Virus record (IMG/VR): IMGVR_UViG_3300045988_018861
DNA: 35,795 bases
Strand: one strand, 5' to 3'
DNA from: a virus
The position numbers were made by a program, and so were the translations under genes. The notes beneath the pieces are model-generated. The model had not been told where the DNA came from and made no database searches. It saw only the letters and a list, made by a program, of their open reading frames with translations. The stretch's first letter is position 1; every line of letters starts with the position of its first letter. Below, in pieces: positions 1 to 10,019 of this stretch.

Positions 1-265
1 CGCCGGAGGCAGTGGCGCAGCTACCGCCGGAGACTTTGGCGCAGCTACCGCCGGAGACAGTGGCGCAGCTACCGCCGGAGGCAGTGGCGCAGCTACCGCC
101 GGAGACTTTGGCGCAGCTACCGCCGGAAACTTTGGCGCAGCTACCGCCGGAGACAGTGGCGCAGCTACCGCCGGATTCCGTGGCGCAGCTACCGCCGGAT
201 TCCGTGGCGCAGCTACCGCCGGAGGCAGTGGCGCAGCTACCGCCGGAGACTTTGGCGCAGCTACA
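1..265 (+). repeat. 24-nt tandem repeat array (about 11 units) inside a coding region; encodes A-T-A-G-x-x-G-A octapeptides
   Basis: Unit is ggcgcagctaccgccgga plus a 6-nt variable patch (gacttt, gacagt, ggcagt, aacttt, ttccgt). It continues the array at 35629-35795. Confidence 0.95.
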
Positions 266-493
266 TCGCGCGGGAGCGCGTCGGTTGGCACAAATGGCAT
301 TGCGTGCGCGCGCGGTTGTGCGCCTATGGCAAGAGGCGGCATCGGCGCCGTGCTGGTGCTCGTCGAAGAGCCATCTAGCAGCTATAACATTGCGCACTGG
401 AAAGCCGTCGAAGTCGATGGCAAAACGGTGAAGGCGGATACGTGGTATCGGCTGAAAAATGGCGAGCTTATGGAAGCAGGTGACGACGAATGA
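2..493 (+). CDS. C-terminal part of the octapeptide-repeat protein (5' part lies at 35275-35795); not in the ORF track because it has no ATG in the window
   Basis: Frame 2 is open from position 2 to TGA at 491-493. It reads AGGSGAATAGDFGAATAGDSGAAT...SRGSASVGTNGIACARG...WKAVEVDGKTVKADTWYRLKNGELMEAGDDE. Confidence 0.85.
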   Translation, partial: AGGSGAATAGDFGAATAGDSGAATAGGSGAATAGDFGAATAGNFGAATAGDSGAATAGFRGAATAGFRGAATAGGSGAATAGDFGAATSRGSASVGTNGIACARGCAPMARGGIGAVLVLVEEPSSSYNIAHWKAVEVDGKTVKADTWYRLKNGELMEAGDDE

Positions 494-3584: not shown

Positions 3585-3919
3585 AGCCAAGTGATCTGAC
3601 GAAGGCGGAACTGCTGCAAGTGGTGGAAATGTTGGCGGAAGCGGCTAACGAATATTATTTGGATCGTGCGCTGGGACGCATCGAAATGCAGCGGAACGAT
3701 GCCCATTACGCAAGATGCCGAAAGCTGATTGACGAAGAGAGAAGACACACCGAGGCATATTTTGAGCTCCTCCGGCCTTATGACGGGCAATCCATTACGA
3801 ATATTCCGCTGGACGTTGTCAAGCGAGCGCAAGCAGAATGGGAGAAAGCCAGGTCTGCGGGAAAAGAGTGGGACAAGCTGAACGGAATCAAACTGAAAGG
3901 GAGGGTAAGTGATGGCTGA
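3578..3919 (+). CDS. Hypothetical protein
   Basis: 113-aa ORF, GGAGGTGG RBS, helical composition. Confidence 0.6.
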   Translation: MLKPSDLTKAELLQVVEMLAEAANEYYLDRALGRIEMQRNDAHYARCRKLIDEERRHTEAYFELLRPYDGQSITNIPLDVVKRAQAEWEKARSAGKEWDKLNGIKLKGRVSDG

Positions 3920-5420: not shown

Positions 5421-5453
5421 GCCGTCTGTCTTTTGGCAGGCGGCTTCTTGTTG
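5421..5453 (+). terminator. Rho-independent terminator
   Basis: GCCGTCTG / CAGGCGGC stem (one G-U pair), 8-nt loop, then TTCTTGTTG. Confidence 0.55.
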
Positions 5454-5479
5454 CTTACGCCGGGAAAACATGATATAAT
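5451..5479 (+). promoter_or_regulatory. Sigma-70-type promoter for the ParB-like/Mom-like operon
   Basis: TTGCTT, 17-nt spacer, TATAAT preceded by TGa (extended -10). Confidence 0.5.
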
Positions 5480-5492
5480 TTATTAGGAGGCG

Positions 5493-6098
5493 ATGAAATT
5501 GAACGTTGTGTATAAGAAACTCCGCGAAATTACACCGTATGATAAAAATGCGAAAAAGCATGATAAGACCCAGATTGCAAATGTTGCGGAAAGTATCAAG
5601 CAATACGGCTTTGTGCAGCCGATTGTGATTGACCGCGACGGTGTGATTGTTATCGGCCACTGTCGTGCTCTGGCGGCAAAGAAACTTGGCATGAAAGAAG
5701 TGCCGTGTGTCTGTGTGGATGATCTGACGCCGGAGCAGGTGAACGCTCTGCGGCTGGTAGATAATAAGAGCAACGAGAGCGATTGGGACTTTGATCTGCT
5801 GAAAGATGAACTGCCGGAGTTGGATTTGAGCGATTTTGATTTTGATTTTGATTTTGGCTTGCAAGCCGATGGAGAAGATTATTCACAAGATGAATTTGGC
5901 GATGAATTTTCGTTGCCAGATGGCGATAAACCAGAAATCTGCCAAATGACATTTACCCTACACCAACAGCAAAAGGAATTGATTGAATACGCAATTAGCA
6001 TTGTGAAAGATAATGTATCTGAAACATTTGGTAATGCCAACGAAAATGGGAACGCATTGTATGAGGTGATACGGCAATGGGCAGCGCAAAGGAATTGA
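5493..6098 (+). CDS. ParB N-terminal (ParB/Srx-like nuclease) domain protein
   Basis: ...ITPYDKNAKKHDKTQIANVAESIKQYGFVQPIVIDRDGVIVIGHCRALAAKKLGMKEVPCV...LTPEQVNALRLVDNK... Acidic DFDFDFDF linker. Confidence 0.8.
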   Translation: MKLNVVYKKLREITPYDKNAKKHDKTQIANVAESIKQYGFVQPIVIDRDGVIVIGHCRALAAKKLGMKEVPCVCVDDLTPEQVNALRLVDNKSNESDWDFDLLKDELPELDLSDFDFDFDFGLQADGEDYSQDEFGDEFSLPDGDKPEICQMTFTLHQQQKELIEYAISIVKDNVSETFGNANENGNALYEVIRQWAAQRN

Positions 6099-6829
6099 TT
6101 GTAAAAGTTATTCCGAGCAAGGTTGCCGTTCCGTTTGTGAAAACGCACCATTATAGTGGCAAGGTTGTGAATAACAGCAATTTGCATTTCGGCGTGTTTT
6201 ACGAAGGCAGACTTCACGGCGTCATGTCCTTTGGCCCGTCTTTGGATAAGTCAAAAATACAGGGGCTTGTTGAGGGAACCGGGTGGAACGAATTCATCGA
6301 ATTGAACCGTATGGCGTTTGATGATGTGCTGCCGCGTAATAGTGAGAGCCGGGCGATTGCGATTGCGATGAAGCTAATCAGAAAAAACGCGCCTCAAATC
6401 AAATGGGTCATTTCGTTTGCTGATGGTTGCCAATGCGGTGACGGAACAATCTACCGCGCAAGTGGGTTTATCTTGACGGGTTATTCAAGCGGCTCAATGT
6501 GGAAGCTTCCTGATTACCTCGTGAAAATAAACGGCGGGGACGTTGCCCACAGAATGAAAGTGCAAAACAAACGCAGTGCTTTGTCAAGGTATATTCTCCA
6601 AGAAACGCATGGTAAAAACTTAACGATGGAAAAGTGCGTTGAGAAGTTTGGCGGGGAAATTCTTGATGGGAAGATGTTTCGGTATATCTATTTTATCGAT
6701 TCAACATATAGGGATCGGCTTCTCGTTCCGATCATTCCATTTTCCAAAATCGATGAAATGGGCGCTGGAATGTATAAGGGGAAAAAGGTAACGCAAGCTG
6801 AAAGGCATAATAAAAAGCAACCCGAATAA
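6077..6829 (+). CDS. Mom-family-like (GNAT-fold) putative DNA adenine modification protein
   Basis: PFVKTHHYSGK...HFGVFYEG...ELNRMAF...NSESRAIA...ISFADGCQCGDGTIYRASGFILTG...FRYIYF. This pattern matches what I recall of Mom-like acyltransferase-fold proteins. Overlaps the ParB-like gene by 22 nt. Confidence 0.55.
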   Translation: MGSAKELIVKVIPSKVAVPFVKTHHYSGKVVNNSNLHFGVFYEGRLHGVMSFGPSLDKSKIQGLVEGTGWNEFIELNRMAFDDVLPRNSESRAIAIAMKLIRKNAPQIKWVISFADGCQCGDGTIYRASGFILTGYSSGSMWKLPDYLVKINGGDVAHRMKVQNKRSALSRYILQETHGKNLTMEKCVEKFGGEILDGKMFRYIYFIDSTYRDRLLVPIIPFSKIDEMGAGMYKGKKVTQAERHNKKQPE

Positions 6830-6843
6830 ACGAGTTGCTTCAA

Positions 6844-6917
6844 TGGAGCGGAGGGGTCGGAATTGAACCGCCTATTCCATACGGATGTATGGTGTTTTAA
6901 CAATAGACTACCTCCGC
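6844..6917 (-). tRNA. tRNA-like element with a non-canonical anticodon arm (no assignable anticodon)
   Basis: On the minus strand: 7-bp acceptor stem GCGGAGG/CCTCCGC, T-arm GGCGG-TTCAATT-CCGAC (one mismatch), encoded discriminator + CCA. The anticodon arm is CCATA(C)-ATCC-(G)TATGG (6-nt or 4-nt loop). The D stem is weak, and there is one extra C between the T stem and the acceptor stem. Confidence 0.45.
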
Positions 6918-6984
6918 ATATTTTGGTATTATTATAGCAACTAAAAAATGGTTTGTCAATATATTAAAAAGCGAAGTGAGATAA

Positions 6985-7335
6985 ATGGCGAATGAGCAGA
7001 ATTTAAGGCCGTGTGAGCATAAATTTACCCAAGAAGAAGCCAAGAAAGGCGGCGTTGCATCCAGAGAGGCTCGACGCAAAAAAAAATTGCTACGAGAATG
7101 TCTGCAAGAGCTGATGCAGATGGAATATAGCACTTCGCAAGGGAAAAAATCCGGTTCTGAAATGCTGTCGGCAATGCTGATGAAAAAGGCGATGAGTGGA
7201 GACATCAAGGCGTTTGAAGTCCTGCGAGACACGGCGGGGGAAAAGCCGGTTGATAAAGTCATGTTTGCAGATGTGGACAAAAGCGTGATTGACGAAGTGG
7301 AGAAGATGGTAAATGACACGGGAGCAAGCGGTTAA
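6985..7335 (+). CDS. terS: Terminase small subunit
   Basis: Position immediately upstream of TerL. N-terminal basic segment NLRPCEHKFTQEEAKKGGVASREARRKKK is typical of small terminases. Confidence 0.65.
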   Translation: MANEQNLRPCEHKFTQEEAKKGGVASREARRKKKLLRECLQELMQMEYSTSQGKKSGSEMLSAMLMKKAMSGDIKAFEVLRDTAGEKPVDKVMFADVDKSVIDEVEKMVNDTGASG

Positions 7336-8581
7336 TTTTCTGCTGGAAAAACCTTATCTTTTCGCGCATATGCTTGGGTTTACGAAGCTGACCGAGCTGC
7401 ATAACGGCTGGATTATCGACATGGTGCGTGGCAAAGAAGATAAGACACTGCAAGCACACCGTGGTAGCTATAAAACGACCTGCGTGTCCATCGCGCTGGC
7501 TATCATCATCATTCTAATGCCGCGCAAAAAGACGTTATTCATGCGAAAAACCGACACGGACGTGAAGGAGGTTATCAAGCAGGTTCAAAAAATTTTGCTT
7601 GACCCCCACACGCTTTATTTCGTGCAGGTGATTTATGGCACGCCACTCCGGTTGACCGTTTCTTCCGCGACAGAGATCAACACAAACCTTGCGACAGACA
7701 TCAAGGGCACATCCCAGCTTGTCGGTATTGGTACGCAAGCTAGCTTGACTGGCAAACACTTTGATTGCGTTTTTACGGATGATATTGTCAACGTTAACGA
7801 CCGCATTTCTCGCGCGGAGCGAGACCGGACGAAACTGGTGTATCAAGAATTGCAAAACATCCGAAACCGAGGCGGAAGAATCTATAACACGGGAACTCCG
7901 TGGAGTAAAGACGATGCTTTTACTTTGATGCCTAACATCGAGCGCTTTGATTGCTATCAAACCGGGCTTATCCCGCCGGAAGATTTGGAGCAAATTAAGG
8001 CAAGCATGACCGCGTCTCTGTTCGCCGCGAACTACGAATTACGTCATGTAGCAGAAGAGGACGTTATTTTTTCCAACCCGCGCACAGATTGTGACACAGC
8101 GCTGGTTGAACAGGGCGATTGCCATATCGACGCTGCATATGGCGGCGAAGATTATACCGCATTTACCATCGTGTCAAAGCGCAATGGCAATTACTATTTT
8201 TACGGGCGCTTGTGGCGTAAACACGTAGATGACTGCCTCGACGAGATACAGGGCTTGCGCAAGCGCTTCAATGCTGGTAGAATTTACTGCGAGGACAACG
8301 GCGATAAAGGATATTTGGCGAAAGAACTGCGCAAGCGTGGTGAACGTGCTGTTACCTACCACGAGAATATGAACAAGTTTTTGAAAATCACATCGTATCT
8401 GAAAGCTGAATGGAACAACGTTTATTTCGTCAGCGGGACTGATAAAGAATTTATCGACCAAATTTGCGATTACAACGAAAACGCTGAACACGATGATGCA
8501 CCGGATAGCGTGGCAAGCCAGGTGCGGCGGCTGTGGAGGAAAAACAGCACGGTAGAAAAATATCAATCCATTTTGAGTTAA
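7313..8581 (+). CDS. terL: Terminase large subunit
   Basis: Walker A-like HRGSYKTT, Walker B-like DCVFTDD, nuclease-domain acidic motifs DAAYGGEDYTAF and HDDAPDS. Confidence 0.9.
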   Translation: MTREQAVNFLLEKPYLFAHMLGFTKLTELHNGWIIDMVRGKEDKTLQAHRGSYKTTCVSIALAIIIILMPRKKTLFMRKTDTDVKEVIKQVQKILLDPHTLYFVQVIYGTPLRLTVSSATEINTNLATDIKGTSQLVGIGTQASLTGKHFDCVFTDDIVNVNDRISRAERDRTKLVYQELQNIRNRGGRIYNTGTPWSKDDAFTLMPNIERFDCYQTGLIPPEDLEQIKASMTASLFAANYELRHVAEEDVIFSNPRTDCDTALVEQGDCHIDAAYGGEDYTAFTIVSKRNGNYYFYGRLWRKHVDDCLDEIQGLRKRFNAGRIYCEDNGDKGYLAKELRKRGERAVTYHENMNKFLKITSYLKAEWNNVYFVSGTDKEFIDQICDYNENAEHDDAPDSVASQVRRLWRKNSTVEKYQSILS

Positions 8582-8585
8582 CGGG

Positions 8586-10019
8586 GTGGTAAACATAAAG
8601 ACGTATCAGGACTTGACCGCGCTCGGCGATAATGAAGCGGCGCGGATGGGTTTCATTCTGGCGGCGATCGGGGAGCACAAAAGCAGCTTTGCGTATAAAA
8701 CTGCATCGCTGGCGGAGCAGTACTATCGCGGATTGAACCCAAAAATCATGCATTATCAGAAAGTGCTTTATGATCTTCGTGGTAAGGCACACGCGGACGC
8801 ATGGAGCGCGAACCACAAGATCGCATCAAACTTTTTTAATTTCGCAGTAACACAGGAAAACCAGTATCTTCTTGGCAATGGCGCGATGTTCGGCAAGGAC
8901 GATACGAAACAGCGGCTTTCCGGCGGCGATAAAGAAATGCATAGCAATCGCTATGAATTTGATAGTCAGTTGCAAAAGGCCGGTAAAGAGGCGCTTATCG
9001 GCGGCGTATCTTTCGGCTTTTGGAATTATGACCATTTGGATGTGTTCTCGCTGACAGAATTTGTGCCGCTGTATGACGAAATGGACGGCGCGTTGAAAGC
9101 TGGCATCCGCTGGTGGCAGGTGGCGGAAGATAAGCCGCTCAGAGCGACACTGTATGAAATCGATGGATACACGGATTACGTCGCGCAGAATGGAGCGGAA
9201 ATCAAATCCGCCGATGATGGTGGGAAGCGGCCTTATATCATTAAACGTCGTGGAGATGCGAAGGACGCTGCGGACAACACCGAAGTGTTTGAAGGCGATA
9301 ATTATCCGGCGTTCCCGATTGTCCCGCTTTATGGTAACGACAAAAAGCAGTCAGAGCTTGTTGGACGGCAGGGAACGCTTGATGCCTTTGACCTGCTGAA
9401 TAGTAACCTTGTCAACAATGTGGACGAGGGAAATTACATTTACTGGGCAATCACAAACTGCGGTGGCATGGACGATGAGGACGATCAAAAATTCATCGAG
9501 CGCATGAAAACCGTCCATGTTGCCCACGTTGATGGTGACGGTAGTGGTGGAGCAAAGGTCGAAGCACACACGGTTGAAACACCGTTTCAGGCTTCCGACA
9601 CGGCGATTTCCACAATCAAAACAAGGTTGTACGAAGATTTTCAGTGCCTGAACGTTGCCGATTTGTCAGCCGCGGCAAAAACGGCAACTGAAATTCGCGC
9701 AGCTTATCAGCCGCTTGATAGCAAGGCGGATATGTACGAATATTGCGTGATTGATTTCGTGCAAAAAATTCTTGCGATCGCGGGGATTGAAGACGAAGTG
9801 AGTTTCAAGCGTTCGAAAATTATCAATCAAAGCGAAGAAATCAACATGATTTTGTCAGCGGCCGAATATCTCGATGATGAAACTGTGACGGAGCAGCTTT
9901 GCTTTATTCTCGGCCTCGGAGAGCAGGCCGACGAGATTATCAAGCGTAAGAGGAACGAGGAAACCGAGAGATTTGAACCGGAAAGCGAAGACGAGGTGAG
10001 CGTTAATGGCGACAATTAA
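8586..10019 (+). CDS. Portal protein
   Basis: 477 aa, directly after TerL; acidic C-terminus. The GTG start is uncertain. Confidence 0.8.
   Translation: MVNIKTYQDLTALGDNEAARMGFILAAIGEHKSSFAYKTASLAEQYYRGLNPKIMHYQKVLYDLRGKAHADAWSANHKIASNFFNFAVTQENQYLLGNGAMFGKDDTKQRLSGGDKEMHSNRYEFDSQLQKAGKEALIGGVSFGFWNYDHLDVFSLTEFVPLYDEMDGALKAGIRWWQVAEDKPLRATLYEIDGYTDYVAQNGAEIKSADDGGKRPYIIKRRGDAKDAADNTEVFEGDNYPAFPIVPLYGNDKKQSELVGRQGTLDAFDLLNSNLVNNVDEGNYIYWAITNCGGMDDEDDQKFIERMKTVHVAHVDGDGSGGAKVEAHTVETPFQASDTAISTIKTRLYEDFQCLNVADLSAAAKTATEIRAAYQPLDSKADMYEYCVIDFVQKILAIAGIEDEVSFKRSKIINQSEEINMILSAAEYLDDETVTEQLCFILGLGEQADEIIKRKRNEETERFEPESEDEVSVNGDN

Follow-up and report, generated by a model that had tools for sequence, protein, structure and literature searches.

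A predicted ParB-assisted, tRNA-dependent DNA modification module of the Mom family, with a tRNA(Gly)-like gene, beside the packaging genes of a phage

What does a gene pair for a ParB-like and a Mom-like protein do directly ahead of the packaging genes of a phage, and why does a gene resembling a glycine tRNA stand beside it? The question was raised by a viral DNA of 35,795 nucleotides (IMG/VR record IMGVR_UViG_3300045988_018861), which at its full length is called the window here. An earlier note, made from the letters alone, had described the pair at positions 5451–6829 as a two-gene operon and a candidate module for DNA hypermodification and anti-restriction. The computational analysis favored, with a probability of roughly 0.6, a ParB-assisted, tRNA-dependent DNA hypermodification module that has a private, probably non-decoding donor tRNA. 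The elements on which this reading depends are listed below.

5493–6098, plus strand: open reading frame (ORF) for a protein with a ParB/Srx N-terminal domain; 201 amino acids, or 199 from a TTG at 5499.
6077–6829, plus strand: ORF for a Mom-family enzyme of the GNAT fold; 250 amino acids, its ATG preceded by the ribosome-binding site GAGGTGA.
6814–6841, minus strand: terminator of the tRNA-like gene; an 11-bp stem followed by TTTTTATTAT, kept in the lineage of the window.
6844–6917, minus strand: tRNA(Gly)-like RNA; 74 nucleotides (nt), the encoded CCA counted, and a 7-bp acceptor stem; convergent with the Mom gene.
6931–6959, minus strand: promoter of the tRNA-like gene; TTGACA, 17 nt and TGcTATAAT, a 12/12 match with an extended −10 element.

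The ORF at 6077–6829 was confirmed to encode a genuine Mom-family protein, as the earlier note had proposed. The profile comparison suggested there gave 183.7 bits with Pfam family PF25680 against a cutoff of 27.1 (E = 4.3e-54), covering profile positions 2–202 of 202, and the product also matched phrog_1384, 'Mom-like DNA modification protein' (1.4e-48). Every motif string that had been listed for the family was found in the 250-residue product. Mu Mom (PDB code 8BV8) was the sole significant sequence match in the PDB, with an E-value of 6e-26. The same entry ranked first in a fold search with the AlphaFold2 model of the protein (predicted local distance difference test score, pLDDT, 85.8), at an E-value of 4e-19 and template-modelling scores of 0.59–0.72 over 221–225 columns; the next GNAT match followed at 4e-6.

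Residues of Mu Mom were mapped with a correction of 10 residues, by which the GenBank translation is offset relative to the numbering of PMC13219725. Residues H25, Y26, R78, S91, D116, and Y126 of the window protein corresponded to H58, Y59, R111, S124, D149, and Y159, which belong to the active site of Mu Mom (PMC13219725). All six mapped residues were 100% conserved among 95 distinct members of the clade, in which an invariant R127 comes right after Y126. The model also contained an insertion of about 50 residues, composed of four helices (residues 146–191), between the strands of residues 141–143 and 194–196. The possible counterpart in Mu Mom is a helical, HTH-like (HTH, helix-turn-helix) insertion (residues 175–209), which is essential and, by alignment, shorter than that of the window protein.

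Mu Mom moves glycine from Gly-tRNA(Gly), not an acyl group from acyl-CoA, to the N6 atom of adenine in double-stranded DNA (Silva et al. 2026, PMC13219725). N6-carbamoylmethyl-adenine arises from the adduct by rearrangement, and Gly-tRNA(Ala) is rejected (PMC13219725). Mu Mom was described in that work as scavenging host tRNA, and neither ParB nor phage tRNA genes are mentioned in its main text. The window enzyme shares with Mu Mom the Pfam family PF25680, the GNAT fold, an insertion at the same place, the six active-site residues, and a gene position for late expression beside the packaging genes. By analogy it would also share the glycyl-tRNA class of co-substrate and the adenine target in double-stranded DNA, and it is predicted to be an aminoacyl-tRNA-dependent modifier of N6 of DNA adenine. 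The two systems differ in that the window protein is about 34% identical to Mu Mom, lacks R151 and W48, and has the longer insertion. In addition, the window module has no Com, Dam, or OxyR control, and its clade carries ParB and, in about 70% of the loci, a dedicated tRNA(Gly)-like gene, neither of which is present in Mu.

The linkage of these genes was examined in 119 independent loci, which comprised 80 viral loci from IMG/VR encoding Mom-like relatives at 54–93% identity and 39 loci from GTDB species-representative genomes. Their host taxa were Clostridia, Treponema, Bacteroidota, Patescibacteria, Saccharibacteria, Sumerlaeota, and Pseudomonadota. The control set contained 58 loci (280 kb) surrounding Mu-like and Bacillus BC-6-like Mom genes. 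A ParB homologue was located immediately upstream of Mom, usually overlapping it, in 78 of the 80 viral loci, and directly upstream in 37 of the 39 genome loci, the other two having no upstream sequence. Altogether ParB adjoined Mom in 115 of the 119 loci, from several bacterial phyla, and in all six close relatives of the window; the cultured Psychrobacter phage vB_PmaS_Y8A (hereafter Y8A) has the gene order ParB, Mom-like, small terminase subunit (terS), large terminase subunit (terL), portal. No ParB was present in the 58 control loci. The ParB–Mom pairing is not due to chance, and the co-occurrence that the earlier note had asked to be counted is borne out. Its remark that the arrangement departs from the Com control of Mu also stands: Mu has com-mom without ParB, and in the window the gene that overlaps Mom from upstream is ParB (199–201 amino acids), not a small com ORF. 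The overlap of 22 nt between the two ORFs (positions 6077–6098), which had been noted before, was present as described, and the ParB and Mom genes overlap in the large majority of the 119 loci, which suggests translational coupling.

The assignment of the first product to a stand-alone ParB N-terminal domain was likewise upheld by matches to PF02195 (ParB_N; 33.9 bits, cutoff 26.3), to the ParB-like family phrog_620 (4.6e-47), and to the N-domains of ParB and Noc in the PDB (about 1e-7). The protein appears to be composed of an NTP-binding domain (residues ~1–95), an acidic low-complexity linker (residues ~97–145), which is probably disordered, and a conserved small C-terminal helical region. 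Residue R58 of the GHCR box, the phosphate-binding arginine of the GxxR pattern, and residue N91 were invariant among 76 homologues of 29–84% identity, across which the C-terminal motifs were also conserved; ParB diverges far faster than Mom. In the box, His replaces the glutamate of GERR. No HTH domain was detected by Pfam or NCBIfam, the NCBIfam partition models scored far under their cutoffs, and a parA-like gene was absent from the adjacent ORFs examined. The AlphaFold2 model had a pLDDT of 40, with an alignment limited to homologues of at least 78% identity. The true start of the protein is probably TTG 5499, not ATG 5493, because the homologues begin with MNVVYKK; the sequence AGGAGG lies 8 nt before the TTG and only 2 nt before the ATG.

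An experimental precedent for such a pair is available. A subclass of phage thymine dioxygenases (5mYOX) needs a cognate short ParB for activity on double-stranded DNA (O'Toole et al. 2026, PMC13229309), and this ParB consists of a nucleotide-binding domain, a linker, and a C-terminal domain, without a DNA-binding domain (PMC13229309). In the window, too, a short ParB without an obvious DNA-binding domain stands beside a modifying enzyme near the terminase, and both its nucleotide-binding and C-terminal domains are conserved; the apparent match in layout rests on this conservation and on low-confidence secondary structure. In contrast to the 5mYOX systems, the partner would be a GNAT-fold aminoacyl transferase instead of an iron/2-oxoglutarate dioxygenase, its dependence on ParB is a prediction, and the ParB has His at the position of the GERR glutamate. 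The window ParB also differs from chromosome-segregation ParB proteins, having no GERR glutamate, no detected HTH, and no ParA-like neighbour in the ORFs examined. With the adjacency and this precedent, the proposal of the earlier note that ParB partners the modifier is supported by gene order and analogy.

Alternatively, the ParB-like protein may be a nuclease or DNA-binding protein that serves the terminase in packaging or host-DNA degradation, with Mom as a cargo gene at the ParB–terminase junction. Modification loci of the type 'ParB–terminase large subunit' with variable modification enzymes have been described in phages (Iyer and Aravind, as cited in a passage of PMC4738411). The annotation of PHROG relatives as nucleases or methyltransferase fusions and the His in place of the GERR glutamate also agree with this explanation. 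It does not account for the overlapping genes in the large majority of the loci or for the lack of ParB in other Mom clades, whereas the activation of an adjacent DNA-modifying enzyme by ParB, with cognate specificity, is known from experiment (PMC13229309). The loss of W48 and R151 in the clade, described below, also fits the need of Mom for a helper. This explanation is considered unlikely, and a ParB that assists the modifier is preferred.

The third component, the tRNA(Gly)-like RNA, had not been part of the two-gene operon described before. Transcription from the promoter at 6959–6931 is predicted to start so that a leader of about 7 nt would be left for removal by RNase P. The RNA contains G3:C70 and, with G1:C72, C2:G71, U73, C35, and C36, the full identity set of bacterial tRNA(Gly). 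The anticodon loop, CAUCCG, has 6 nt with A before UCC, or can be drawn as a 6-bp stem with an AUCC tetraloop. The D-loop has G18 but U19, and an unpaired A is located in the 3′ strand of the T-stem. The minimum free energy was −25.9 kcal/mol (z = −3.7). In the lineage of the window, the pairs A5–U68 and A31–U39 were replaced by C5–G68 and G31–C39 as compensatory changes, and in relatives of 94% identity the promoter hexamers and the TG were unchanged while the spacer had four substitutions. The terminator at 6814–6841 overlaps the Mom stop codon (6827–6829) and may therefore also end the ParB–Mom transcript.

General searches did not recognize this RNA. ARAGORN reported no tRNA in the window, and Rfam gave nothing at gathering thresholds, the tRNA model (RF00005) reaching 22.3 bits in E-value mode against a threshold of 29. 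No other member of its family is more than 68% identical to the window RNA, and BLASTN-short with this RNA found no matches in the 80 viral loci. Because the members have diverged too far for a search by sequence, a covariance model was required. The model, R1, was built from a structure-guided alignment of 14 distinct RNA copies (A2), which was curated by hand, padded with N, and checked programmatically; it replaced a plain MAFFT alignment in which the T-stem bulge and the anticodon loops were misplaced. The window RNA matched R1 with 64.8 bits (E = 4e-15).

R1 matches were found in 57 of the 80 viral loci, of which 54 abutted or overlapped the 3′ end of Mom (−100 to +31 nt) and three lay upstream of ParB. 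Together with 27 of the 39 genome loci, an RNA of this type was present in 84 of the 119 loci, and it was present in six of the six closest relatives of the window. In about 30 of the 80 viral loci, ARAGORN called a tRNA-Gly right behind the stop codon of Mom, mostly with UCC and in a few cases with ACC; some were labelled 'tRNA-???' with short loops. In the control loci R1 had no match, only one unrelated tRNA being present, and no RNA of the type was found in Mu, PAN70, the Porphyromonas phage, or BC-6. The absence of both RNA and ParB from the controls therefore indicates that both are specific to this Mom subfamily. In 35 of the 119 loci the RNA was absent, Mom led straight into the next ORF, and a pattern scan for the acceptor stem returned random matches only; with the next ORF following directly, these absences are therefore genuine.

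In most loci the RNA gene shares the strand of Mom and lies 5–14 nt after the Mom stop, or overlaps it, a short way upstream of terS. The gene can be on either strand; some loci have it in tandem duplicates, and in some it precedes ParB. The opposite orientation to Mom was seen in the window and at least eight other loci, and at 78% Mom identity the RNA gene sits on the opposite strand relative to that of the window. In phage Y8A (L120, OQ059336), two tandem copies without a D arm occupy positions 3662–3726 and 3734–3799 within the 165-nt gap between Mom and terS; the phage had been reported to have 'no tRNA genes' by tRNAscan-SE (PMC10434257). Y8A also carries a second, Mu-like Mom paralogue, ORF69 (record coordinates 39393–40157).

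The 61 distinct RNAs formed 41 clusters at 80% identity. In alignment A2, 98.6% of the cells were paired versus 44–52% in slid controls, and 17 of 21 pairs showed double changes, counts that lean towards a cloverleaf because the alignment was fitted to it by hand; the slid controls and an independent alignment of the window lineage agree with the cloverleaf. The pairs G1:C72 and C2:G71 were each present in 60 of 60 distinct members. Pair 3:70 was G:C in 53 of these, G:U in four, C:G in two, and A:U in one. U73 was found in 58 of the 61 RNAs, and an NCC triplet in the anticodon loop also in 58 (UCC in 37, ACC with A34 in 16, GCC in 5). The invariant positions coincide exactly with the determinants of bacterial glycyl-tRNA synthetase (GlyRS), G1:C72, C2:G71, U73, C35, and C36 (PMC10464925).

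The anticodon loops were 5–8 nt long, and a potential C:G pair closes most of them. A decoding-competent loop was lacking in 50 of the 61 RNAs (82%), owing to a missing U33, a loop of 5–8 nt, A34, or a pyrimidine at position 37. In 50 of the 61 the T-stem had the unpaired A in its 3′ strand, and CCA was encoded in 28. The affinity of EF-Tu for the tRNA body is set almost wholly by the first three T-stem pairs (PMC7826273), and the unpaired A falls within this region.

Phages often carry tRNAs, and the RNA could be an ordinary tRNA-Gly(UCC) for the translation of GGA and GGG that hitch-hiked beside Mom, which would use host tRNA only. Like an ordinary phage tRNA, it forms a cloverleaf with a 7-bp acceptor stem, a T-loop near GTTCRAnY, and often an encoded CCA. 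ARAGORN labels many copies as tRNA-Gly(UCC), the loop is canonical in 11 of 61, and GGA and GGG make up 30% of phage glycine codons. However, the loops of 82% of the members are incompatible with decoding, versions without a D arm exist, and scores for the Rfam tRNA model are low or below threshold: the window copy falls short of it and was missed by ARAGORN, and only five of 16 relatives reached it, with 30–46 bits. The adjacency to Mom survives strand flips, duplications, more than 40 sequence clusters, and hosts of several phyla, and the RNA is absent from the 58 Mom loci without ParB. None of the seven non-glycine tRNAs called by ARAGORN in the 80 viral loci stands beside the Mom stop. An ordinary decoding tRNA is thus a distinctly improbable explanation.

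A structure that acts in cis and is never aminoacylated, such as a 3′ stabilizer of the mRNA, a signal for RNase P or RNase Z, or a DNA or RNA feature of the pac/terS region, is very doubtful. The usual position on the Mom strand at or just after the stop and before terS, and the lack of an encoded CCA in 33 of the 61 RNAs, would suit such an element. The opposite orientation in the window and the other loci, the perfect promoter and the terminator of the window copy, and the location upstream of ParB in three loci argue against it. In addition, selection preserves the aminoacylation determinants (acceptor pairs 1 and 2, U73, and NCC) while the rest varies, and compensatory changes at the RNA level speak against a DNA site.

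The preferred reading is a three-component module for post-replicative DNA hypermodification just ahead of the packaging genes. The tRNA(Gly)-like RNA would be made from its own strong promoter and matured by host RNase P and 3′ trimming. Charging by host GlyRS is proposed because the RNA keeps the GlyRS determinants, and in about 70% of these phages the charged RNA would act as a private donor of glycyl groups. From the 3′ end of the charged RNA, the Mom-like enzyme would draw an aminoacyl group, which is most likely glycine, and place it on N6 of adenine in the double-stranded phage DNA. By analogy with Mu, rearrangement of the glycyl adduct would yield N6-carbamoylmethyl-adenine, and host restriction enzymes would be blocked. 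The aberrant anticodon loop and the bulged T-stem would exclude the RNA from the ribosome and probably from EF-Tu, and, if the RNA is so kept out of translation, modification would therefore not compete with late protein synthesis. The short ParB, translationally coupled to Mom, would act as an activator or loader of Mom on double-stranded DNA.

Several points weigh against this reading. The equivalent of R151 of Mu Mom, whose R151A variant is inactive (PMC13219725), aligns with C118 or Q119 in the window protein and is C or T in the clade, never R. The dimer-interface residue W48 of Mu Mom corresponds to K15, and to K, S, or Q in the clade. Since both residues are lost, the substrate, product, or oligomeric state may differ. 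The 35 loci without the RNA make it accessory and not obligatory, and Mu manages without one. Apart from the hand fitting of A2, the 11 RNAs with a canonical 7-nt loop, U33, and purine 37 could decode, and GlyRS may fail to read C35 and C36 within loops of 5, 6, or 8 nt. As for ParB, the absence of an HTH and the small C-terminal domain are derived from the silence of Pfam and from low-confidence secondary structure, and the protein could instead be a nuclease. The reading as a whole draws on sequence, linkage, and RNA covariation; expression, charging, use of the RNA by Mom, exclusion from translation, the part played by ParB, the product, and virion modification are its predictions.

The missing R151 also bears on the possibility that the enzymes of this clade perform another chemistry, with a different amino acid, base, or RNA target and a product other than N6-carbamoylmethyl-adenine. 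An invariant motif specific to the clade, D-G-x-x-C-G-D-G-T-I-Y-R, together with the loss of R151 and W48, therefore defines a distinct Mom subfamily, and the identity of about 34% to Mu Mom and the G3:U70 pair of some RNAs, a determinant of alanyl-tRNA synthetase (AlaRS) cited in PMC10464925, point in the same direction. On the other side, the remaining six catalytic residues are invariant, glycine identity is kept at pair 3:70 in 53 of 60 RNAs and at the other determinants in nearly all, and Mom is the closest fold by 13 orders of magnitude. Another chemistry is held to be very unlikely, and glycyl transfer to adenine by a ParB-assisted enzyme remains the preferred reading.

A remnant of attP or of an integration site was ruled out, since the cloverleaf is full-length, its place is in mid-prophage between Mom and terS, and the loci examined had no integrase close by. 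The family SpF41_sRNA (RF02435) was also rejected as the identity of the RNA; it was the top Rfam match to 6809–6920 on the minus strand, at 30.9 bits against a threshold of 52, and never reached the threshold in relatives. The SpF41 consensus is itself tRNA-like, with a GCG...CGCU acceptor and a GGUUCGAAUCC T-loop, followed by a terminator, and SpF41 has been reported only from strain-exclusive regions of S. agalactiae (PMC6064168). SpF41 may be a streptococcal prophage relative of the tRNA-like family, which would give evidence of expression.

A functional parallel is found in Staphylococcus, where the non-proteogenic tRNAs NP1–NP3 for glycine feed the GNAT-fold Fem transferases FmhB, FemA, and FemB (Rietmeyer et al., PMC7826273). 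Those tRNAs have altered D and T arms, are weakly used by EF-Tu and the ribosome, and were 'so far only detected' in staphylococci (PMC7826273). The phage RNAs would resemble them in keeping GlyRS charging, in their altered D and T arms, and in supplying a GNAT-fold transferase outside translation. They differ in that they are virus-encoded and linked to the transferase gene, with DNA as the predicted acceptor instead of a peptidoglycan precursor. Their loops are far more degenerate (5–8 nt, A33, A34), the unpaired A of the T-stem is characteristic, and some copies have no D arm.

The Mom family, the ParB–terminase modification loci, and the activation of a DNA-modifying enzyme by ParB are already known; the ParB–Mom pair is a new combination of known kinds. 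No report of a linkage between Mom and a tRNA(Gly)-like gene was found in the searchable literature; the supplement of PMC13219725 lay outside the search and prior notice is not fully excluded, which tempers the claim to novelty. The linkage in hundreds of uncultured phages of several phyla independently supports the 2026 finding that Mom-family enzymes use glycyl-tRNA. There is an even chance that the RNAs form a hitherto unnoticed non-decoding, GlyRS-chargeable tRNA(Gly)-like class in phages of many phyla, with the sole job of delivering glycine to a ParB-assisted Mom-type enzyme; donor RNA, enzyme, and loader would then make up a viral system complete in itself. Some lineages, with G3:U70 variants or D-arm-less minimal forms, may have been retuned to put other amino acids on DNA.

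If the reading is true, the RNA would be the first known case of a tRNA that a virus encodes for DNA modification and not for translation, and the family would add a second set of non-proteogenic tRNA(Gly) to the one known so far, that of the staphylococcal cell wall. Activation by ParB would no longer be confined to dioxygenases but would also hold for another, unrelated class of DNA-modifying enzymes, which would suggest a general 'loader' at the junction of modification and packaging. An annotation gap is also indicated: such RNAs are invisible to ARAGORN, tRNAscan-SE, and the Rfam thresholds, and genomes described as having no tRNA, such as that of Y8A, may carry them. Minimal, chargeable tRNA scaffolds that by nature do not decode, with their cognate transferase, could help dissect recognition by GlyRS, EF-Tu, and Mom, and may find use in engineering site-specific aminoacylation of DNA. 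With the cultured phage Y8A and co-expression in E. coli, the model is directly testable.

Variants of the RNA gene were observed in several lineages. In loci of the L001–L022 type (L001:4750–4824), in which Mom is 72–93% identical to that of the window, the RNA has G3:U70 together with G1:C72, C2:G71, U73, and UCC, and dual or alanine charging is a possibility suggested by this pair. Tandem duplicates occur at L090:3760–3929, L091:3810–3979, L118:3810–4000, and L028:573–724, and the second copies in L091 and L118 have no NCC triplet, their loops being TGATCG and CGATTG. A second, aberrant tRNA-like gene lies 1.5–2.5 kb upstream of ParB at L002:2839–2907 and L016:2965–3033, and also in L003, L005, L007, L012, L015, and L022. 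It is 69 nt long, with a truncated anticodon arm, G or A at position 73, and R1 scores of 39–46 bits, and it was missed by ARAGORN; related loci carry tRNA-Ile(AAU) and tRNA-Trp at this position. In L027, L031, L048, L055, L057, L074, L099, and L104, the tRNA-like gene lies partly or wholly within the Mom ORF, which overlaps it by up to about 100 nt, so that tRNA sequence codes for the C-terminal tail of Mom.

The remaining elements around the module are as follows.

5421–5444, plus strand: intrinsic terminator; a 10-bp stem with seven G–C pairs and a T-rich tail, which closes the upstream gene and insulates the module.
5451–5479, plus strand: candidate promoter of ParB–Mom; TTGCTT (5451–5456), 17 nt, and TATAAT (5474–5479), with the extended −10 TGaTATAAT, read from the sequence.
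6985–7335, plus strand: small terminase-like ORF, from the ORF list.
7313–8581, plus strand: large terminase ORF; a weak match to a terminase RNaseH-like Pfam family, with TerL homologues downstream in related loci.
8586–10019, plus strand: 477-amino-acid ORF in the place of the portal gene of Y8A.

The module is located at the ParB–terminase junction, and the matching gene order is annotated in Y8A. The terminator at 5421–5444 topped the list of terminator-like sites in the scan, in agreement with the earlier description of an operon that begins just after a terminator. The claim that the operon has its own promoter was borne out in part. The sequence TTGCTT-17-TGaTATAAT is present and is a plausible promoter; its −35 element agrees at only three of six positions, so that the consensus scanner did not list the site, and it was kept in the nearest relative only. 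The C5-methyltransferase gene mentioned in the earlier note is present on the plus strand and is split across overlapping frames, with the N-terminal motifs (Pfam positions 46–129) in the ORF at 459–1037 and the C-terminal part (positions 255–315) in the ORF at 823–2097. A frameshift, a pseudogene, or a sequencing error could explain the split, as could an unusual architecture containing a large insert.

A DNA-level search of the phage collection with the window returned three partial matches only. The first ORF of the window (12–431, plus strand), directly upstream of the methyltransferase and the early genes, matches PF10109, a family of phage tail-assembly chaperones. Near-identical ParB proteins are carried on contigs of about 35–36.5 kb. 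From the position of the PF10109 ORF and from these contigs, the window seems to be a complete phage genome in circularly permuted form.

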